NCBI GenBank assembly: GCA_964464905.1
Contig: CAYXHC010000001.1
Coordinates: 1,097 to 65,096 of the forward strand
From: an uncultured Lachnospiraceae bacterium
Lineage (GTDB): Bacteria; Bacillota; Clostridia; Oscillospirales; CAG-272
Direction of reading: 5' to 3'
Length of the DNA stretch: 64,000 nucleotides
Every line of letters begins with the position of its first letter. Position 1 is the first letter of the stretch. Positions 11,676 through 21,591 of the stretch are shown here, in pieces. The translations under genes were made by a program, and so were the position numbers. Under the pieces are notes generated by a model that worked only from the letters and a program-made list of their open reading frames with translations, made no database searches and was not told the DNA's origin.

Positions 11676-11711
11676 GTTTTTCGGCAATGACGCCTACATA
11701 AAACAATAACG

Positions 11712-11743
11712 GCTGACGCGGTTTTTCCGCGTCAGCTTTTTTT
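11712..11743 (+). terminator. Rho-independent terminator
   Basis: Stem GCTGACGCGG (11712-11721), loop TTTTT, stem CCGCGTCAGC (11727-11736), followed by TTTTTTT. Confidence 0.9.
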
Positions 11744-11828: not shown

Positions 11829-12122
11829 ATTGTTCGATAAAATGAACAAAGTATGGCGAAAAAGTCCGACTTGTGTTATGAAATATGGTGAAAAAGATGA
11901 AAAAGTGCTGTGGGGACTTGAAATATTACACCGATGTATGATAAAATAAACAAACATTAAAAATCAAAATGTATAGGTGTTTGTATTTTGTTTTTTATTG
12001 GGAAGCGATTCCTTGACGACGACGGCGTTGCCGCGTCGTTCAATGGCGCATTGTGATGCCCGGTCAGTGTATGCCGGACCGGTGCGCAACTGTCTTTCCT
12101 TGTGTATGCGTTATTATATAAA

Positions 12123-12285: not shown

Positions 12286-14748
12286 ATGACAACTTTCAAG
12301 AGACTTATGAGCGTGCTGCTTGTTCTCTGTATGTTGTCCGTAGCTTTCGTTTCCTGCTCTAACAAGGGCGGCGACGCGAAGGTCGGTAACTATACATATA
12401 ACAGCTACGCAAGCAGTCTCGGAACCAACTGGAACCCCCACACGTGGGAAGTAAGTTCCGATGACGCTATCCTCGGCTACGTAAGCTCCCCCTTCTGCAC
12501 GATGCAGGTTTCCGATTCCGAAAACGGCGTCTACCAGTGGGTGTATGAGATGGCTACCTCTATCGAGGACGTAACCAAGGATCACCAGGACGATCTCACC
12601 AAGTATGCTGTAACACTTCCCGAAGGCCAGTCGGCTTCCGAGACCACCGAAGGTTACGTTTACGAGATCAAGCTCAATGAAGATGCTAAGTGGGAAAACG
12701 GCACTCCTATCAATGCTGACACCTACATCTACTCCATGAAGGCTCTTCTTGACCCCGCTATGAAGAACTACCGCGCTAACCTCTACTATGCAGGCGAATC
12801 TGCAGTAGCAGGCGGTAATGCTTACTACTATAGCGGAGACATTGCATGGGATACCGATCTCATGGGTGCTGAAACCCTCGAAACCATCGTTAAGGGCGAA
12901 GACGGCACTTACACCACCTCTGATGGCAAGCCCATCGCTGTAGCTCTCACCTCCGCGCTTGATTGGCTCAGCGGATACGCTCTTTCCGACTACGTTGACG
13001 CTTACGGCGAAGCATACTTCGGCGTTGCAGATTACGAAACCCTTTCTGCTATGGCAGTTGGCGGCTTTGTACCCGTAACCGACGAAGTTATCGACCTTAT
13101 GGAAGGCGTTATCACCGCTGTTGAAGCTTGGGGCGAAACCAGAGCTGACGTAGCTCAGTACTTCTACTCCGGTACTCAGATGCCTGAGGCTACCTACGAC
13201 GTTGTAGGCTGCTACAAGGTTGACGATTACACCATTCGTTATGTATGCCAGACATACCTCGACAAAAACTACTTCCTCACCTCCTGCACCTCTACCTGGC
13301 TCGTATATGAAGATCTCTACGAAGCAGGAAAGGACACCACCGGTACTCTCGTAACCACTAACTACAACTCTTCTCCTGAAACCACCATGTCCTACGGTCC
13401 TTACAGAATCGAGTCCATGCAGAACGACAAGCAGATCGTTTACGTTCAGAATGAGAACTGGTACGGCTACGAAAAGGAAGGCGACTACCTCGTATCCTAC
13501 ACTCCTTACCTCGTTGACGGTAAGAACGTACAGCGCTACATGACCACCAAGATCGTTATCAACGTTATGGATAACGACGCTGCAAAGCTCGCGTTCCTTA
13601 AGGGTGACCTTGACGACTGGGCTCCCAGTGCAGACGACCTCGTTAACTACGCTATGAGCGAACAGCTCTACAAGGTTGACGAAACCTACACCATGTCCTT
13701 CTTCTTCAACACAGACGTTTCTATGCTCCAGGAGATGGATAACTCCAAGGGTAACATCAACTCCGTTGTTCTTTCAAACTACAACTTCCGTAAGGCATTC
13801 TCCCTTGCAGTTGACCGTACTGAGTTTGTAACCGCTACCGAAGGCTACAAGCCCGCTTACGCACTTATGAACAACCTCTACTTCTACGACGTATACAACG
13901 ATCCTAACTCCTCCTACAGAGGCTCTGATGAGGCTATGCAGGCAGTCTGCGATCTTTACGGCGTAAAGTACGGTGAAGGTACTCCTTATGCAACTCTCAA
14001 GGAAGCATACGACTCCATCACCGGTTACAACCTTACTGAAGCTAAGGCTCTCATGGCAACCGCTTGCCAGGAGCTCGTAGATGCAGGCCTCTACACCGCA
14101 GGTGAAGACATCACCATCCGTATCGGCTGGTCCAAGTCTGCTCTCACTTCTGCTGATAACAATCAGATCGCTCTTATGAACAAGTACATCAACGCTGCTG
14201 TTGAAGGATCCGGCTTCGGCAAGATCACTCTCGAAGGCGTTGGCTCCGTTGAAGACCGTTACGGCGACGTTCCCGCAGGTAACTTCGCAATCGGTTACGG
14301 CGCATGGGGCGGTGCTGCGTTCTATCCTTTCCGTAACTTCCAGGTTTACTGCGACACCGAGCAGTATGCAGGCCAGATCAATGAAATGGCATGCTGGGAT
14401 CCTTCCGTTGAAGAGCTCACTCTCACGGTAGACGGCAAGGAAGTAACTATGACATGGCAGGAATGGTCTCGTTCCATGACCGGTACCGGCCAGTTCGCAA
14501 CTGCAGACTTCTCCGTTAAGCTCGCTATCACGGCTCAGATGGAAAAGCTCTTCCTTGAAAAGTACTACAGAATCCCCTTCTGCGGAACTACTATATGCTC
14601 TATGCTCTCCTACAAGTGCAACTACTACACCGATGAATACAACATCATGTACGGTTTCGGCGGACTTGAGCTTATGACCTACAACTACACCGATGAAGAA
14701 TGGGCAGAATTCTGCGCTGAACAGAATGGCGATATTAAGTACGAATAA
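12286..14748 (+). CDS. ABC transporter substrate-binding lipoprotein, family 5 (Opp/Dpp-type), unusually long at 820 aa
   Basis: The signal and lipobox are MTTFKRLMSVLLVLCMLSVAFVSC. By eye the layout is family-5: ...YVYEIKLNEDAKWENGTPINADTYIYSMKALLDP..., then ...YGPYRIES...VYVQNENWYG... It is followed by Opp-type permeases and ATPases. Confidence 0.8.
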   Translation: MTTFKRLMSVLLVLCMLSVAFVSCSNKGGDAKVGNYTYNSYASSLGTNWNPHTWEVSSDDAILGYVSSPFCTMQVSDSENGVYQWVYEMATSIEDVTKDHQDDLTKYAVTLPEGQSASETTEGYVYEIKLNEDAKWENGTPINADTYIYSMKALLDPAMKNYRANLYYAGESAVAGGNAYYYSGDIAWDTDLMGAETLETIVKGEDGTYTTSDGKPIAVALTSALDWLSGYALSDYVDAYGEAYFGVADYETLSAMAVGGFVPVTDEVIDLMEGVITAVEAWGETRADVAQYFYSGTQMPEATYDVVGCYKVDDYTIRYVCQTYLDKNYFLTSCTSTWLVYEDLYEAGKDTTGTLVTTNYNSSPETTMSYGPYRIESMQNDKQIVYVQNENWYGYEKEGDYLVSYTPYLVDGKNVQRYMTTKIVINVMDNDAAKLAFLKGDLDDWAPSADDLVNYAMSEQLYKVDETYTMSFFFNTDVSMLQEMDNSKGNINSVVLSNYNFRKAFSLAVDRTEFVTATEGYKPAYALMNNLYFYDVYNDPNSSYRGSDEAMQAVCDLYGVKYGEGTPYATLKEAYDSITGYNLTEAKALMATACQELVDAGLYTAGEDITIRIGWSKSALTSADNNQIALMNKYINAAVEGSGFGKITLEGVGSVEDRYGDVPAGNFAIGYGAWGGAAFYPFRNFQVYCDTEQYAGQINEMACWDPSVEELTLTVDGKEVTMTWQEWSRSMTGTGQFATADFSVKLAITAQMEKLFLEKYYRIPFCGTTICSMLSYKCNYYTDEYNIMYGFGGLELMTYNYTDEEWAEFCAEQNGDIKYE

Positions 14749-14984: not shown

Positions 14985-15950
14985 ATGACGAAATACGTTA
15001 TAAAAAGAATCCTTTTGATGTTCTTCACGCTGTTCGTTATTGTTACGATCGCGTTTACGCTTATAAGACTGCTCCCTCAGCAGCCGCCGGACGGACTCGA
15101 CGCGAACCAGCGAAAAGCAGTTCTTGATCGTTGGAGAGCTCTTGGTTATGAAGAGCCCATTCCTACGCAGTTTGCGATCTACCTGAAGAATATCTTCACA
15201 AACGGAGACTTCGGCACGTCCTGGTCTATTGACTACCGTGAGCCTGCCCTTGATCTTCTTTTGTCCAGACTTCTTCCCACCGTTATCGTAAACCTTTATT
15301 CACTGCTGTTCTCCATCCCGATAGGTATCGGCCTCGGCATTTATGCAGCAGTCAAGAAAAATAAATGGCAGGACTCCTTCATAAGCACTATCGTTATGGT
15401 GTTTATTTCCGTGCCCTCCTACGTTTATGCCTTCCTCGTTCAGTATTTCTTCTATTATAAGTGGAACCTTCTGCCTCAGCTCGTTTCGTCTCTTGCGGAT
15501 GCGGGCGGTTCCTGGTTCTCCTGGAAGATGTTCGTAAGTATGATCTCCCCCGTGCTTGCGCTCTCCTTCGGTGAGATCGCAGGTCTTTGCCGTTTCACAA
15601 GAGCAGAGCTTACGGAGACCCTTACCTCCGACTATATGCTGCTCGCACGCACGAAGGGACTTACCCGCGCGCAGGCAACCACCCGTCACGCACTTAAAAA
15701 TGCAATGGTGCCGATCCTCCCCATGATCATTTCCAGCTTCGTTGGCATCCTCGGCGGTTCTATGATCATCGAACAGATCTTCTCCGTTCCCGGCGTTGGT
15801 CAGCTCTATATGCGTTCCATCAATCTGCTTGACTACGACGTATTTATGGTCGATACTGTATTCTACACGTTTATCGGACTTCTTGCCGGCATCGTCGTTG
15901 ATATAAGCTACGGCTTCATCGATCCGAGAATCAGAATGGGAGAAAAATAA
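14985..15950 (+). CDS. ABC transporter permease, OppB/DppB-like
   Basis: 321 aa, six predicted TM segments. The EAA-type loop reads LARTKGLTRAQATTRHALKNAMVPILP. AAGGAG lies 9 nt upstream of the ATG. Confidence 0.9.
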   Translation: MTKYVIKRILLMFFTLFVIVTIAFTLIRLLPQQPPDGLDANQRKAVLDRWRALGYEEPIPTQFAIYLKNIFTNGDFGTSWSIDYREPALDLLLSRLLPTVIVNLYSLLFSIPIGIGLGIYAAVKKNKWQDSFISTIVMVFISVPSYVYAFLVQYFFYYKWNLLPQLVSSLADAGGSWFSWKMFVSMISPVLALSFGEIAGLCRFTRAELTETLTSDYMLLARTKGLTRAQATTRHALKNAMVPILPMIISSFVGILGGSMIIEQIFSVPGVGQLYMRSINLLDYDVFMVDTVFYTFIGLLAGIVVDISYGFIDPRIRMGEK

Positions 15951-15951
15951 T

Positions 15952-17604
15952 ATGGCAGAAAAAACCTTTGATATTAACAGTATCCCGCGTGAGAAATTTG
16001 AATTTGCCCACGAAGGCGAACGCCTTATGGACAAAAAGTTCGATGATAAGCCGATAAGCTATTTCCGCGATGCATGGATCCGCTTCCGCAAGAATAAAGC
16101 GTCCGTTGCCGCGCTTGCTATCATCGTTATTATTGCTCTTTTCTCGTTCCTTTGCCCCGTTATCTCCGGATTCAGATCTACGGAAAAGACGACGTTTGAT
16201 AAAACGTTTATGGACGTTTATTATGCAAAGAAGGGACCGAGAAACGAGTTCCTTGCCAATATCGGCATTGCCGACGGTACCGTTGAGCGCTCTTATTCCG
16301 AGAAATCTCTCGTTTACACCGTTGGTATAGGCGTTGGTGCTGCAGACGGCGATGCTCACGGTGCGACCTTTGAGGAGGGGCTTGCAAGCAAGTATCAGCC
16401 TCTCATAAGAGGCTACAGTGATCCCGTGCTTCAGCAGAATGCAAAGAAGCAGATGGTTGAATATTATTATGCCGATTCCGACGTTTATCTTGAGGTTGGC
16501 TTTATCGAAAAGTCTATCGAGCAGTCCGAATACGCAGCGCTCAAGGCGTGGGAAGAGGAGACCGGTCTTCAGGTCCTCTATCCTCTTGTTGCGAAGAACG
16601 AATTCAATGCAGACCCTGCAAACGCAAACAACTGGTATAAGACTCAGAAGAACAATCCCGTTTCCGTTGATGAAGACGGTAACGTGACAAAGATCAAGCT
16701 TGCCGATCTCCAAAGCGGTAAGGCAGTGCTCGAGGATAATTACGAGCGCGACGCTGAGGGTAATGTTCTTTATTACAAGTACTCCGGAAGCAGCGACTTT
16801 GATACTGCTATGTTCAGAGTCCGTCTCCTTTACTATAACTACTATATGTTCAACAATGGCTTCGCACCCGAATATATTTTCGGTACCGACAGCCAGGGCT
16901 ACGACCTTGCTATACGTATGGCAGATGGTATCAGACTCTCTCTGCTCGTTGCCGTTTTCGTTTCCGTTATCAATTTCGTTCTCGGCGCTATGTACGGTGC
17001 CATTGAAGGATACTACGGCGGAACCATTGATATCATTCTTGAGCGTGTGTCCGATATCCTTGCAGGTATCCCCTTCGTCGTCGTTGCGACATTGTTCCAA
17101 CTCCACCTGAAGGACCCGATGGACCTTTTCTTCAGAAATGAATTCGGTCTTAAGTCTGCAGGTCCTATCGTATGTCTTCTCTTTGCATACGTCGTAACCG
17201 GATGGATCGGCACTGCGTCCAGAGTCAGAACGCAGTTCTACCGCTTCAAGTCTCAGGAATACGTTATGGCAGCAAGAACCCTCGGCGCGAGCGACCGCCG
17301 TATCATTTGGAAGCACATTTTCCCGAACACACTCGGTACTATCATCACATCATCCGCACTCGTTATCCCCGGAGTTATCAACTCAGAAAGTATGCTCAGC
17401 TATTTGGGTATCGTTAAGCTCGGTACAGCGGAAGCAACCTCTCTCGGTACGCTTCTCTCCGATGCAAGCAGCATCTGGACGAACTACCCGCACCTTCTCA
17501 TTTTCCCCGCTCTCATACTCTCTCTCCTTATGATATGCTTCAACCTATTCGGTAACGGTCTGCGCGATGCATTTAACCCGTCCCTTCGCGGTGTGGAGGA
17601 CTAA
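15952..17604 (+). CDS. ABC transporter permease, OppC/DppC-like, with an insertion of about 240 aa between TM1 and the GTD motif
   Basis: 550 aa. TM1 spans about aa 51-72. The canonical FGTDSQGYDLAIRMADGIRLSL motif appears only at aa 310. The EAA loop is ARTLGASDRRIIWKHIFPNTLG. The start lies 1 nt after the previous stop. Confidence 0.9.
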   Translation: MAEKTFDINSIPREKFEFAHEGERLMDKKFDDKPISYFRDAWIRFRKNKASVAALAIIVIIALFSFLCPVISGFRSTEKTTFDKTFMDVYYAKKGPRNEFLANIGIADGTVERSYSEKSLVYTVGIGVGAADGDAHGATFEEGLASKYQPLIRGYSDPVLQQNAKKQMVEYYYADSDVYLEVGFIEKSIEQSEYAALKAWEEETGLQVLYPLVAKNEFNADPANANNWYKTQKNNPVSVDEDGNVTKIKLADLQSGKAVLEDNYERDAEGNVLYYKYSGSSDFDTAMFRVRLLYYNYYMFNNGFAPEYIFGTDSQGYDLAIRMADGIRLSLLVAVFVSVINFVLGAMYGAIEGYYGGTIDIILERVSDILAGIPFVVVATLFQLHLKDPMDLFFRNEFGLKSAGPIVCLLFAYVVTGWIGTASRVRTQFYRFKSQEYVMAARTLGASDRRIIWKHIFPNTLGTIITSSALVIPGVINSESMLSYLGIVKLGTAEATSLGTLLSDASSIWTNYPHLLIFPALILSLLMICFNLFGNGLRDAFNPSLRGVED

Positions 17605-17607
17605 GTC

Positions 17608-19767
17608 ATGGATAAGATTCTTGAAGTTAAAGGACTTAAAATATCGTTCCGTACAAGCAGCGGAACGCTCAAGGCGGTTCGTGATATCTCCTTCGACCTT
17701 GAGCGCGGTAAGACTCTTGCCATAGTCGGTGAATCCGGCTCCGGCAAGTCTGTTACATCAAAAGCAATTCTCGGTATTCTTGCCGGCAACTCTATTATTG
17801 AGGGTGGCGAGATACTTTACGACGGTAAGGATCTTCTTAAGATCACCGAGGATGACATGTATAAGATCCGCGGAGATAAGATCTCTATGATCTTCCAGGA
17901 TCCGCTTTCGTCTCTGAATCCCATCGTTAAGATCGGTAAACAGATCACGGAAGCAATGCTCCTTAAAAATAAGGCAAACCGCAAGGAAGCGAGAGCTGAA
18001 TTTAACAGCATCCTCGCTCTCCTTCGCGAGAATATGATTGCAGCGTCCGGTGCTGAAAATGCGTCGAAGATCGAGGAGATGATCTCAACCTTCGACAAGT
18101 TCTGCATTGAGGCGACCAAGATCGAAACTGAATATAACGAAGCTTCTTCCGTTGCAGAAGAGCTTATCTCCAACATTGAAGACTTCGTCTTTATGATGGA
18201 AAAGAAGCAGAAGCTCGACGTTAAGGCGTCTCTCAAGGAATATGCAGAAAAGCTCGCAAGAGTTAAGAATCAGTTCCTTACAGTTGATCGCGACGAGGAG
18301 CTCACACGTCTCGCGGATGAAATGCTCGCTTTCAGAGCAGAGTATAAGAAGGACGCAAACGCTGAGGGCATGACTGAAAAGGTCATTTCCGTTCTTCGTG
18401 AAGTGCAGGCGGTCCTCCGGCAGGTGCTTGCAACCGAGCGTCCCAACTTCTTCCGCATCGGCTACTATAAGTACTGCGGAAACGACATTTCTCTTAACGG
18501 TAGGACCGTAGAAGAGCTCAACGAGATCACGCTTTCGTATCTCGACGAGAATTATATGAGAGAGTTCATCTCCGTTGAGACTAAGGGCGTTGAACATTCG
18601 TATAATGTTGCCCTCGAAAAGAAGAAGGAGGTTCTCGGAAAGCTTTCTGAAGCAAAGGAATTCTATCGCGGTGATTTCAAACAGAAGGCGGCAGAAGCTC
18701 TCTGCAAGACTCTTTCCGCTGAAGTTGAAGCTTCCATTGACAAGCTGGAGCTGCTCAAGGATAGTACTGCATACACGTTCAGAAGCAGTCTCTCCGGCGC
18801 CGTTGCGCAGTACTTCCGTTTCAAGAAGCAGAATCCTCGCGAGGAAGCACGCTTCGAACGTCAGACTAAAAAGCGCGATGCTCTTATCGCTCGCGGCAAG
18901 ACTGTTGACTGGAAGGTAGTGCCCAAGGTCGTCTACGATCTTGACGAGCTCAAGGCGAACATCGTTTCCATCATTGAGCATCTTGAAGAGCGCTACAATG
19001 CATACATTGCAGGTGCCGATTCTATAGATTTCAAGACACGCAGCTCCGATATCGTAGATCACCTTAAGGAAAAGGCTTCTCAGGTGGTTTACCGTGTAAC
19101 TGCAAGTATGGCAAAGGAACAGGCTATCAAGCTTATGGACGAGGTTGGTATCCACGAGCCCCGTACCCGTTACTATCAGTATCCCTTCGAGTTTTCCGGC
19201 GGTATGCGTCAGAGAATCGTTATCGCTATTGCACTTGCGGCAAACCCCGACATTCTCATCTGCGATGAACCTACCACTGCTCTCGACGTTACCATTCAGG
19301 CACAGATACTTGAGCTTATCAATAAGCTCAAGAGAGAAAGAAACCTTTCCGTTATCTTCATCACACACGACCTTGGTGTCGTTGCGAACATGGCTGACGA
19401 CATCGCAGTTATGTACGCAGGTAAGATCGTTGAATACGGTACGGCTGACGATATTTTCTATGATCCTCGTCATCCTTACACCTGGGCGCTCCTTTCTTCT
19501 ATGCCCGATCTCGATACCAATGAAAAACTCGACGCTATCCCCGGCACACCTCCCAATATGATCTATCCCCCTGTGGGCGATGCTTTTGCAGACCGTAACA
19601 AGTACGCGCTTAAGATAGATTTCGAGGCTCAGCCTCCTATGTTTGAGGTGTCTCCCACTCATAAGGCTGCTACCTGGCTCCTGCATCCCGATGCACCAAA
19701 GGTTGAGGTGCCGAAGATCATTACGAGCCGCATCGAAAGAATGAAAAAGGCAGGAGGTAATAACTGA
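17608..19767 (+). CDS. ABC transporter ATP-binding protein, OppD-like, 719 aa with an insertion of about 360 aa in the helical subdomain
   Basis: Walker A is GESGSGKS (aa 41-48). The Q-loop is MIFQDP (aa 94-99). The signature FSGGMRQR appears only at aa 529-536. Walker B is ILICDEPTTALD. The C-terminal Opp-type extension reads PRHPYTWALLSSMP. Confidence 0.9.
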   Translation: MDKILEVKGLKISFRTSSGTLKAVRDISFDLERGKTLAIVGESGSGKSVTSKAILGILAGNSIIEGGEILYDGKDLLKITEDDMYKIRGDKISMIFQDPLSSLNPIVKIGKQITEAMLLKNKANRKEARAEFNSILALLRENMIAASGAENASKIEEMISTFDKFCIEATKIETEYNEASSVAEELISNIEDFVFMMEKKQKLDVKASLKEYAEKLARVKNQFLTVDRDEELTRLADEMLAFRAEYKKDANAEGMTEKVISVLREVQAVLRQVLATERPNFFRIGYYKYCGNDISLNGRTVEELNEITLSYLDENYMREFISVETKGVEHSYNVALEKKKEVLGKLSEAKEFYRGDFKQKAAEALCKTLSAEVEASIDKLELLKDSTAYTFRSSLSGAVAQYFRFKKQNPREEARFERQTKKRDALIARGKTVDWKVVPKVVYDLDELKANIVSIIEHLEERYNAYIAGADSIDFKTRSSDIVDHLKEKASQVVYRVTASMAKEQAIKLMDEVGIHEPRTRYYQYPFEFSGGMRQRIVIAIALAANPDILICDEPTTALDVTIQAQILELINKLKRERNLSVIFITHDLGVVANMADDIAVMYAGKIVEYGTADDIFYDPRHPYTWALLSSMPDLDTNEKLDAIPGTPPNMIYPPVGDAFADRNKYALKIDFEAQPPMFEVSPTHKAATWLLHPDAPKVEVPKIITSRIERMKKAGGNN

Positions 19768-21023
19768 TGGAAGAAATCAAAAACGGTGAAGTTCTTCTCA
19801 AAGTTGAGAACCTGTGCCAGTATTTCAAAACGAATAAGGCTGTTGACGACGTAAGTTTCGAGATCAAGAAGGGCGAGGTTTTCGGACTCGTTGGAGAATC
19901 CGGTTGCGGTAAAACGACTACCGGCCGTTCCATCATCAAGATCTACGATATCACGTCAGGCAGCATCTATTTTAAGGGGCAGCGCATCTGTGCAGGTGTT
20001 CGTTCATATCTGAACGCTATCTCCGAAGCGAGAAAGTCCACTGCAGAAAAGATCAAGTCTCTTAAGGATGAGATCAAAGCTGATCCCGCAAAGGCAGATA
20101 CGAACAAGGCACTTATCGCTGAAGCGGAAGCAGAACTCAAAAAGATCGTGGCGGAAAACCGCGCCAATATTAAGTCTGCCAATTTCGATCATAGGTATTC
20201 CGACAGAGAATACTCAAAAACGTTGGTTGAAAGGATCAAGACAGAATATAAGGAACAGCTTAAGGCGGCAGAAGGCGATGCTAAGAAGACGGCAGAGCTG
20301 AAGCGCAAATATAAGAACGATCTCCGTGTTGCAAAGAACACGAAGCTCGTTACTAAGATACAGATGATTTTCCAGGATCCCATCGCGTCTCTCAATCCCC
20401 GTATGACGGTACGAGAGATCATCGCGGAAGGTCTCGTTATCAACGGTATCAAGGACAAGGAATATATTGACGAGAAGGTATACGAGATCCTTGAGCTCGT
20501 TGGTCTCGTTCGTGAACACGCAGGTCGTTATCCTCATGAGTTCTCAGGCGGTCAGCGTCAGAGAATCGGTATCGCCCGTTCCGTTATTATGCGTCCCGAT
20601 CTTCTTATCGCAGACGAGCCTATCTCCGCTCTTGACGTTTCCATTCAGGCTCAGATCATCAACCTTTTGAATGATCTTCGTCAGCAGCTCAGTCTTACCA
20701 TTCTCTTCATCGCACACGATCTTTCAGTCGTTAAGTATTTCTCCGATAGGATCGGTGTTATGTACTACGGTAAGATGGTAGAGCTTGCAACCTCCGATGA
20801 GCTTTTCGCGCATCCGTTGCATCCTTATACTCGTTCGCTTCTTTCTGCTATTCCGCTTCCGGATCCCCATTCGGAAAAGAACCGCACGAGGATCGTATAT
20901 AATTCTCTCGCGGAACACGATTACAGTGTTGATAAGCCCTCTATGAGAGAGATCACTCCCGGTCACTTCGTTTACTGTAACGATGCTGAGGAAACACGTT
21001 ACAAGAAGGAGCTTGGTCTGTGA
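19767..21023 (+). CDS. ABC transporter ATP-binding protein, OppF-like, 418 aa with an insertion of about 110 aa between Walker A and the Q-loop
   Basis: Walker A is GESGCGKT (aa 43-50). The Q-loop QMIFQDP appears only at aa 199-205. The signature is FSGGQRQR and Walker B is LLIADEPISALD. The ATG overlaps the upstream TGA by 1 nt. Confidence 0.9.
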   Translation: MEEIKNGEVLLKVENLCQYFKTNKAVDDVSFEIKKGEVFGLVGESGCGKTTTGRSIIKIYDITSGSIYFKGQRICAGVRSYLNAISEARKSTAEKIKSLKDEIKADPAKADTNKALIAEAEAELKKIVAENRANIKSANFDHRYSDREYSKTLVERIKTEYKEQLKAAEGDAKKTAELKRKYKNDLRVAKNTKLVTKIQMIFQDPIASLNPRMTVREIIAEGLVINGIKDKEYIDEKVYEILELVGLVREHAGRYPHEFSGGQRQRIGIARSVIMRPDLLIADEPISALDVSIQAQIINLLNDLRQQLSLTILFIAHDLSVVKYFSDRIGVMYYGKMVELATSDELFAHPLHPYTRSLLSAIPLPDPHSEKNRTRIVYNSLAEHDYSVDKPSMREITPGHFVYCNDAEETRYKKELGL

Positions 21024-21436
21024 AAAAGTATGCTCCGACAATTTTCAAATACGCCGTTACAATCGTGTTTGGCGCTATAATGTCGTGTTTGATATTTGAA
21101 AATTACGAATATGCCTCGGTTACCGATCTTGCTCAGAAGTATAAGATACTTTGCGATGCTTTTTCGGTGCCCGGTATCCTTCTGATAATGCTCGGATGCC
21201 TTGTGTATCTATCGAACGAAGGTGCTCTTGACGGCGTTTCGTTTTTGGTTGGCGGTGTTTTCAAGCGTCTGTTTCCGTTCGGGCAATGGCGCGAGGAAAG
21301 ATACGAGAAATATTCCGAATACGTAGAGCGCAAGCGCTCAAAAAAAGTAAAGGGATATGGCTTCGTTTTCATCGTCGGTGCAGGCTTCTTTGCTGTCTCA
21401 CTCATATTCTATTACCTGTTTTACAGCGTATATTGA
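21020..21436 (+). CDS. Small membrane protein (DUF3899-like), translationally coupled to the importer
   Basis: The GTG start overlaps the upstream stop (GTGA, 21020-21023). It is 138 aa with three or four hydrophobic segments and a central basic loop (ERKRSKKVKG). The DUF3899 assignment is by eye and tentative. Confidence 0.55.
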   Translation: MKKYAPTIFKYAVTIVFGAIMSCLIFENYEYASVTDLAQKYKILCDAFSVPGILLIMLGCLVYLSNEGALDGVSFLVGGVFKRLFPFGQWREERYEKYSEYVERKRSKKVKGYGFVFIVGAGFFAVSLIFYYLFYSVY

Positions 21437-21448
21437 CAAAGAAAAGAT

Positions 21449-21490
21449 CCGATTTCAAGAGTATGTGCCCTTGAAATCGGATTTTTTGTT
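21449..21490 (+). terminator. Rho-independent terminator ending the importer operon
   Basis: 13-bp stem ATCCGATTTCAAG (21449-21461) / CTTGAAATCGGAT (21472-21484), followed by TTTTTT. Confidence 0.85.
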
Positions 21491-21525: not shown

Positions 21526-21555
21526 CGTTGACATCCGTAGTGCGGCGGTGATATA
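21526..21555 (+). promoter_or_regulatory. SigA-type promoter for the GH43 gene
   Basis: TTGACA (21526-21531), 18 nt spacer, TATACT (21550-21555). Confidence 0.6.
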
Positions 21556-21591
21556 CTGAAAACAGAGAAAAACTCTGCTGAGGTGTTGGCT

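Follow-up and report, generated by a model that had tools for sequence, protein, structure and literature searches.

Opp transporters constitute the main peptide-uptake route in many Gram-positive bacteria and Mollicutes. The canonical Opp and Dpp systems are built from a binding protein, two permeases and two ATP-binding cassette (ABC) ATPases, and the current structures, which come from the E. coli and M. tuberculosis systems, are all free of the insert described below. Here, we analysed an operon that follows the same logic in a 64,000-nucleotide stretch of DNA (hereafter the window; contig CAYXHC010000001.1 of assembly GCA_964464905.1, positions 1,097 to 65,096 of the forward strand) from an uncultured Lachnospiraceae bacterium. 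Its oppF-like gene (19767..21023, + strand) encodes an Opp/Dpp-type ABC ATPase of 418 residues, as judged from the open reading frame (ORF), Pfam matches, homologs in the PDB and an AlphaFold2 (AF2) model, and carries about 115 residues at a place where the canonical OppF and DppF chains have about 10. We conclude with confidence that these residues form a structured helical arm, typical of the lineage, and that this arm is built into the connector from the ABC-beta subdomain to the Q-loop of an otherwise ordinary OppF.

Chain D of E. coli OppBCDF (8Z21), of DppBCDF (8Z1V) and of M. tuberculosis OppABCD (8J5Q) shares the fold, the ABC motifs and the oligo_HPY extension with the window OppF, with E-values of 1e-68 to 1e-103 by sequence and 1e-23 to 1e-29 by Foldseek. 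The target-normalised template modelling score (TM-score) is 0.76-0.80 for E. coli OppF and DppF and 0.38 for the 611-residue double-ATPase chain of M. tuberculosis; the query-normalised score drops to about 0.6, since these chains contain nothing that corresponds to the arm. Against NF011659/PRK15079, the NCBIfam equivalog model of E. coli-type OppF, the window protein scores 311 bits with a cut-off of 540, and judged by this score it is a relative and not an equivalog. Its best NCBIfam model is NF043078 (MMSYN1_0168, 406 bits, well under the equivalog cut-off of 800), and that of the partner ATPase OppD is NF043079 (MMSYN1_0167, 460 bits, below the cut-off), both Mycoplasma mycoides syn1 equivalogs. 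The nearest named homologs of both proteins come from metagenome-assembled genomes (MAGs) of Oscillospiraceae and Clostridiales. Among described systems, Opp is part of the genes retained in JCVI-syn3A, a minimal cell (PMC10127287), and the OppF of M. synoviae is reported to have 797 residues (PMC5797395).

Extent of the OppF insert

All ABC motifs of the window OppF are intact and follow each other in the expected order. They comprise Walker A (GESGCGKT, aa 43-50, 19893..19916), the strand and Q-loop IQMIFQDP (aa 198-205, 20358..20381, with FQDP at aa 202-205), the signature FSGGQ (aa 259-263) to Walker B LLIADEP (aa 279-285; 20541..20621), all on the + strand, as well as the D-loop SALD (aa 287-290) and the H-loop IAHD (aa 315-318), and the motifs behind the Q-loop show normal spacing. 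ABC_tran (PF00005) matches with E=1.9e-31 in two stretches that are split by the insert, and oligo_HPY (PF08352) matches the C-terminal aa 338-374 with 35 bits at a cut-off of 27.1. The oligo_HPY extension and the operon context assign the protein to the Opp/Dpp (peptide/nickel, PepT) ATPases.

The insert comprises aa 76-192 (19992..20342, + strand), reaching from the end of the β-strand at aa 72-78 to a few residues before the strand at aa 198-201. Residues 375-425 of Rv1281c from M. tuberculosis match OppF aa 24-74 and its residues 430-609 match aa 188-368, while the alignment with E. coli OppF (8z21_D) begins only at aa 196. Since the solved homologs align to the flanks only, about 110 residues of OppF are extra, and no counterpart of the insert was found in any aligned PDB chain. 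Counted from the first glycine of Walker A up to the hydrophobic residue two positions ahead of the Q-loop glutamine, the spacing amounts to 158 in the window OppF compared with 49-55 in ordinary single or double Opp/Dpp/Gsi-type ATPases; the spacing from Q-loop to signature is a normal 58. Charged residues (D/E/K/R) make up 42% of the insert and 26% of the remaining protein, with a net charge of +8 over 115 residues, 20 of which are acidic. Because 116 protein clusters with at least 75% identity carry the insert at a length of 114-115 residues, an assembly or frame artefact is ruled out.

The original prediction, made from the DNA letters and a list of ORFs, agrees with this picture in most of its parts. 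The interval 19992-20336 that it gave for the segment translates in frame to OppF aa 76-190, and both Walker A at aa 43-50 and the Q-loop QMIFQDP lie where it had located them. The distance of about 150 residues between these motifs, against 40-45 in standard homologs, proves right in substance when the fixed measure above is applied. The description of the segment as charged and helical, and as situated in the ABC-beta subdomain ahead of the Q-loop, fits the charge content just given and the predicted structure presented below.

Predicted structure of the arm

The full-length AF2 model, computed from an 88-sequence alignment, reached a mean predicted local distance difference test (pLDDT) value of 92.3, with 91-98 in the insert, which is all-helical. 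The model places the strands of the ABC-beta hairpin at aa 64-69 and 72-78, followed by three helices and then by the strand at aa 198-201 that leads into the Q-loop. Helix 1 (aa 79-105, 20001..20081, + strand) is amphipathic and runs antiparallel to the first half of helix 2. Helix 2 (aa 107-167, 20085..20267, + strand) is the central helix of 61 residues and carries the best-conserved block of the insert, and helix 3 (aa 172-191, 20280..20339, + strand) runs antiparallel to its second half. A separate AF2 model of the insert (aa 71-200, 64 sequences) yielded the same three helices, again with a continuous helix 2, although the pLDDT dips to 79-86 at aa 131-150.

Mutual information over 119 sequences, with an effective number of about 30, provided a second line of evidence. 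Significant antiparallel registers of covariation were obtained between helix 1 and the first half of helix 2 (i+j=212, p_max 0.010) and between the second half of helix 2 and helix 3 (i+j=338, p_max 0.013), and both fall exactly at the turns predicted by AF2. It is thus well supported that the arm consists of two antiparallel helical hairpins sharing one 61-residue central helix. A four-helix bundle with a break in helix 2 near aa 137 had been suggested by the four top mutual-information pairs. In the register test, neither a pairing of the helix 2 halves with each other nor one of helix 1 with helix 3 gave a significant register (p_max 0.47 and 0.54, respectively). Therefore, with the hairpin registers significant and helix 2 continuous in both AF2 models, the bundle was rejected. 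From the helix lengths of 27, 61 and 20 residues, the arm would form a rod of about 90 Å that is attached near its middle and bears two hairpin arms.

Hydrophobic periodicity, which in a canonical heptad coiled coil would persist at 3.5 residues along the paired helices, was significant in helix 1 (period 3.6, p=0.03), borderline in helix 3 (0.057) and absent from helix 2. Helices 1 and 3 are amphipathic, and helix 2 has no single amphipathic face. A comparison of the isolated arm with known folds gave nothing at E<1 (best Foldseek E 2.8, TM-score at most 0.42), and its sequence found PDB entries by phmmer only at E 0.1 or worse. Kinship with a known domain was therefore discarded.

Conservation and distribution

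Conservation was assessed over 116-118 clusters with an overall identity of at least 75% to the window OppF. Relative to this query, the insert is 47% identical, compared with 88% and 93% for the N-terminal and C-terminal parts of the core. At the same time, the insert is free of insertions and deletions (114-115 residues in 116 clusters), and its net charge is positive in 116 of 116 clusters (+6.4 ± 2.3, range +1 to +13). The best-conserved block, AENRxxIxxAxFDHxxSDREYxKxL (aa 129-153), lies in helix 2, and further conserved positions are S80, Y81, A84, I85, A88, L99, P107 in the first turn, N113, Y161 and K174-K190 in helix 3. The combination of conserved length, fold and charge with low identity indicates selection on these three properties with free drift of the surface.

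To place this family among other ATPases, 1.84 billion representatives were searched exhaustively and the best 150 (50%-identity representatives) were analysed. Forty-seven of these have a single ATPase unit in which Walker A and the Q-loop are 94-455 residues apart; the spacing from Q-loop to signature is a normal 58 in most of them. As an informal group, we call insert-bearing OppF those with a first spacing of at least 90 and a second of about 58, which includes the window OppF (158 and 58). More than 100 insert-bearing clusters are of Oscillospiraceae/Clostridiales type; others come from Bacilli MAGs, and longer versions occur in named Mollicutes. A query with a long insert recovered OppF proteins from Acholeplasma sp., A. 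vituli, A. equirhinis, Izemoplasmatales and Candidatus Izimaplasma HR1. Those examined, among them the proteins of the two named Acholeplasma species and of Izimaplasma HR1, show spacings of 335-341 and 58. Short inserts of 50-65 residues at the same site were found in a Spirochaetaceae MAG (L015), in Pseudothermotoga (L031) and in one soil contig. Two further scans used patterns that were too general: EFSGGQRQ and QMIFQDP on genome contigs, where about 10 of the 80 listed loci were insert-bearing, and VGESGCGK, together with an alignment of the N-terminal part plus insert, on metagenomes, which gave a handful of useful loci.

Same-site inserts thus range from about 50 to 410 residues across many lineages and share little sequence similarity between lineages. 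The connector from the ABC-beta subdomain to the Q-loop is a recurrent insertion site, and the window version is typical of its clade. That the window insert represents the short, fixed-length form of a variable insert marking a Clostridia/Bacilli/Mollicutes branch of Opp is well supported. The idea in the original prediction that this one transporter had made a special acquisition is consequently not borne out, as the insert is a trait of a large clade with more than 100 clusters. The prediction had also named what would speak against it, namely that the segment be common to a large, ordinary subfamily with a known structural role; the large subfamily does exist, but no known structural role was found for the insert.

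Two observations on individual homologs may be added. A contig assigned to a Candidatus Treponema excrementipullorum MAG (L005) carries a full Clostridia-type set of oppD, oppF and a DUF3899 gene, with an OppF 74% identical to that of the window; because this contig is only 5.3 kb long, it probably reflects a binning error or a recent transfer instead of a spirochaete gene. In the close OppF homolog P0004 (486 aa, NCBI), a stretch of about 68 residues of the helical subdomain occurs twice in tandem (AEGLVINGITDKEYINEKVYE... repeated), which is likely an assembly artefact or a recent duplication.

The partner ATPase OppD and the operon

The oppF gene is the fifth of a six-gene operon on the + strand, which is flanked by terminator-like hairpins at 11711-11737 and 21447-21482; promoter-like sites are located nearby at 11918-11947 and 21528-21557, and the GC content is about 49%. 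Upstream of oppF and on the same strand, the operon encodes a family-5 substrate-binding protein of 820 residues (12286-14748, with SBP_bac_5 covering only aa 303-690), an OppB-like permease of 321 residues (14985-15950; BPD_transp_1 with BPD_transp_1_N), an OppC-like permease of 550 residues (15952-17604; OppC_N and BPD_transp_1) and the OppD-like partner ATPase of 719 residues (17608..19767; ABC_tran and oligo_HPY), the stop codon of which shares 1 nt with the oppF start codon (TGATG). This gene order is shared with related loci. In OppC, about 230 extra residues separate the N-terminal transmembrane (TM) helix of OppC_N (aa 36-75) from the permease core, which starts at aa ~300. Overall, four of the five standard Opp subunits in this operon are enlarged, and OppB alone is of ordinary size.

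As the original prediction had stated, the partner ATPase has an insert of its own at a non-equivalent site. This OppD insert (aa ~128-495, about 370 residues, 17989..19092, + strand) is located behind the Q-loop, between the first helix of the helical subdomain and the signature. In the phmmer alignment with Rv1281c, only OppD aa 2-127 and 496-689 align, and the spacing from Q-loop to signature is about 430 compared with about 60 in ordinary homologs. This insert is as well conserved as that of OppF, with 120 OppD clusters of 68-80% identity that are all 712-737 residues long, and it is nearly charge-neutral (+1.6 ± 3.4).

Both inserts occur together in loci of Oscillospiraceae-type Clostridia, Faecousia, Gallimonas and several Bacilli MAGs. 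All Clostridia-type loci of the co-occurrence set have both, while the Acholeplasma-like locus L010 does not: its OppD is of ordinary size, with 350 residues versus 719 in the window. OppD also lacks the insert in L015 and L031, in both of which the neighbouring gene is on the contig. P0126 (1191 aa) is a natural single-chain fusion of OppD and OppF that retains the large OppD-type insert; its OppF half has a shorter first insert (spacing 113) and, where OppD carries its insert, about 48 additional residues, with a Q-loop to signature spacing of 106. P0148 has the same second insert as this half.

The DUF3899 gene and transmembrane modules

The last gene of the operon (21020..21436, + strand) encodes a membrane protein of 138 residues that matches DUF3899 (PF13038, 39.5 bits at a cut-off of 23.4). 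Its GTG start codon overlaps the oppF stop codon (GTGA), which indicates translational coupling of the two genes. DUF3899 has no described function and is scarcely mentioned in the searchable literature. Using a hidden Markov model built from six DUF3899 neighbour proteins, we found that such a gene immediately follows oppF in 11 of the 18 distinct loci with an insert and in 1 of the 113 loci that lack it (Fisher p ~1e-10, without phylogenetic correction). No other partner was found among the conserved neighbours of the operon in the related loci examined.

TM segments were also predicted within or next to the insert of several homologs. P0122 (an 86-member cluster; L009 8983-10704, Candidatus Gallimonas MAG) retains helices homologous to those of the insert and has, at the C-terminal base of the insert, a module that lies between the residues corresponding to N192 and T193, a few positions ahead of the Q-loop strand, and is composed of a TM segment, a beta-rich part of about 85 residues and a second TM segment. 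In P0153, about four TM-like segments are predicted within the OppF insert. Such predicted TM helices inside a nucleotide-binding domain are very unusual for an ABC ATPase. Because the linkers of the TM modules are short, the base of the insert should lie within reach of the membrane.

A different arrangement was observed in P0127, P0128, P0129, P0131, P0133, P0134, P0138 and L036 7738-10224, with OppF proteins of 787-902 residues. Here, a TM helix, an acidic helical domain of about 300 residues that is probably extracytoplasmic and another TM helix are fused N-terminally to the insert-bearing ATPase. The N-terminal extension of P0128, the only member scanned, gave no Pfam match.

Possible functions of the arm

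We tentatively favour, at somewhat less than an even chance, a role of the OppF segment as a structural arm for docking or bracing on the ATPase edge nearest the membrane, with a membrane orientation and a partner that we infer. A rigid, net-basic arm on this outer edge would probably brace or dock the helical insert of OppD and/or the translationally coupled DUF3899 protein. It would be unlikely to take part in ATP hydrolysis itself. The position of the arm, the hairpin covariation, the fixed length, the positive charge, the TM segments at its base, the linkage with DUF3899 and the joint occurrence with the OppD insert are, taken together, consistent with this tentative reading.

Several points weigh against docking. 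The linkage between DUF3899 and the insert is confounded by phylogeny, since the linked loci all fall into one broad clade. Seven insert-bearing loci have no DUF3899 gene, and three of these (L010, L015 and L031) combine this with an insert-less OppD. Conversely, an Oscillospiraceae MAG (L049, 8707-11171) carries an insert-less OppD (361-residue ORF) and OppF (332-residue ORF) with DUF3899 directly downstream, so DUF3899 does not strictly depend on the arm. The fast evolution of the surface and the length range of about 50-410 residues would also fit a loosely constrained spacer. In addition, the orientation of the arm toward the membrane, OppD and DUF3899 is inferred and not seen, and no experimental report on the insert was found in the searchable literature.

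A bolder version, which we regard as unlikely, is that the OppF arm, the OppD insert and DUF3899 form a membrane-anchored scaffold module around the ATPase dimer that controls its closure or couples uptake to another process. Such a module would add a sixth component, so far undescribed, to a widespread peptide importer of the Clostridia/Mollicutes type, and in some lineages the anchor would have become part of OppF in the form of TM segments nested in the nucleotide-binding domain.

A regulatory clamp has about the same rather low probability as the scaffold. Here, in line with the contact between the two modules that the original prediction had considered, the OppF arm would meet the OppD insert across the ATP site formed by the OppF Walker A and the OppD signature and would gate or time dimer closure, making the two ATP sites functionally asymmetric. 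Because the head-to-tail arrangement of ABC dimers should place the ABC-beta subdomain of OppF and the helical subdomain of OppD at the border of the same ATP site, a contact between the inserts is geometrically plausible by analogy. The inserts are moreover conserved together: each is present in over 100 clusters, all Clostridia-type loci examined carry both, and both are retained in the P0126 fusion. However, the charge comparison revealed no clear complementarity between the basic OppF insert and the almost neutral OppD insert, so that electrostatic pairing of the two was dropped as an explanation, and L010, L015 and L031 have OppF inserts without any insert in OppD.

The spacer just mentioned can be taken further, to a surface loop that merely tolerates helical insertions, which are then retained by structural inertia and have no specific partner. 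The wide length range of the connector and the little similarity between lineages suit this explanation, as do the roughly halved identity of the insert (47% compared with about 90% in the core), the function of canonical Opp systems without any insert and the related insert-less pair of L049. It is nevertheless improbable in our estimate, given that there is not a single insertion or deletion across 116 clusters differing at half of the insert positions, that the block at aa 129-153, the turn proline and the anchor residues are conserved, that the net charge is uniformly positive, and that the helix packing is predicted confidently and backed by covariation. Equally improbable is a basic arm with a non-protein or cytoplasmic ligand, be it the anionic head groups of inner-leaflet lipids, nucleic acid or some soluble partner, for instance a peptidase. 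Its consistent positive charge, its extended, non-globular shape without a Foldseek match to a compact domain and the TM segments at or in the insert of homologs would suit such a ligand, but the charge density is modest, helix 2 lacks a single amphipathic face and DUF3899 is the sole conserved neighbour of the operon.

Significance and comparison with known systems

The proteins discussed here are already present in public databases as OppF or generic ABC ATPases, and an NCBI model exists for the Mollicutes form. No paper describing or explaining the insert was found, which, as the literature searched was incomplete, amounts to absence of evidence only. We rate insert-bearing OppF as an undescribed variant of a known transporter. 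A large and abundant branch, including Oscillospiraceae-type bacteria that are dominant in the human gut and Mollicutes, builds both Opp ATPases differently, with predicted helical arms at two non-equivalent sites, often with a small membrane protein and in some members with TM segments. Docking of membrane or cytoplasmic partners by the arms, if it takes place, would represent a new way to regulate or anchor a type I ABC importer. As inert spacers, the arms would instead point to a site at which the ABC fold tolerates insertions, possibly useful for protein engineering.

Among other ATPases, the window OppF resembles SMC and Rad50 in that an ABC core is interrupted by long antiparallel helical segments. 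In SMC and Rad50, the coiled coil exits after the Q-loop, extends over hundreds of residues and ends in a hinge or zinc hook. The OppF insert, in contrast, lies before the Q-loop and consists of 115 residues in two short hairpins. An SMC-like reading of OppF was accordingly abandoned, as the insert is on the wrong side of the Q-loop, and OppF gave no match to SMC_N in Pfam. The SMC_N match of OppD stays below threshold (28.5 versus 40) and can be explained by the large distance between the two halves of OppD.

Lineage-specific insertions that leave the catalytic motifs intact and serve docking or regulation are known from the 'arm' of ABC-F proteins, the helix-loop-helix of ABCE1 and the regulatory insertion in CFTR NBD1. 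No resemblance of the OppF arm to other ABC insertions was detected in the Foldseek search with the isolated arm. The three examples concern other proteins, with other insertion points and other partners (the ribosome or the R domain).

The insert of the Mollicutes-type OppF (NF043078) is situated at the same place as that of the window, and it is likewise helical in character and rich in lysine. Representatives of OppF with long inserts score 370-422 bits on this model. The Mollicutes insert comprises about 290 residues or more compared with about 115 in the window, and the two sequences are not alignable. If docking holds true, it would also account for the large size of mycoplasma OppF, which has been noted for a long time.

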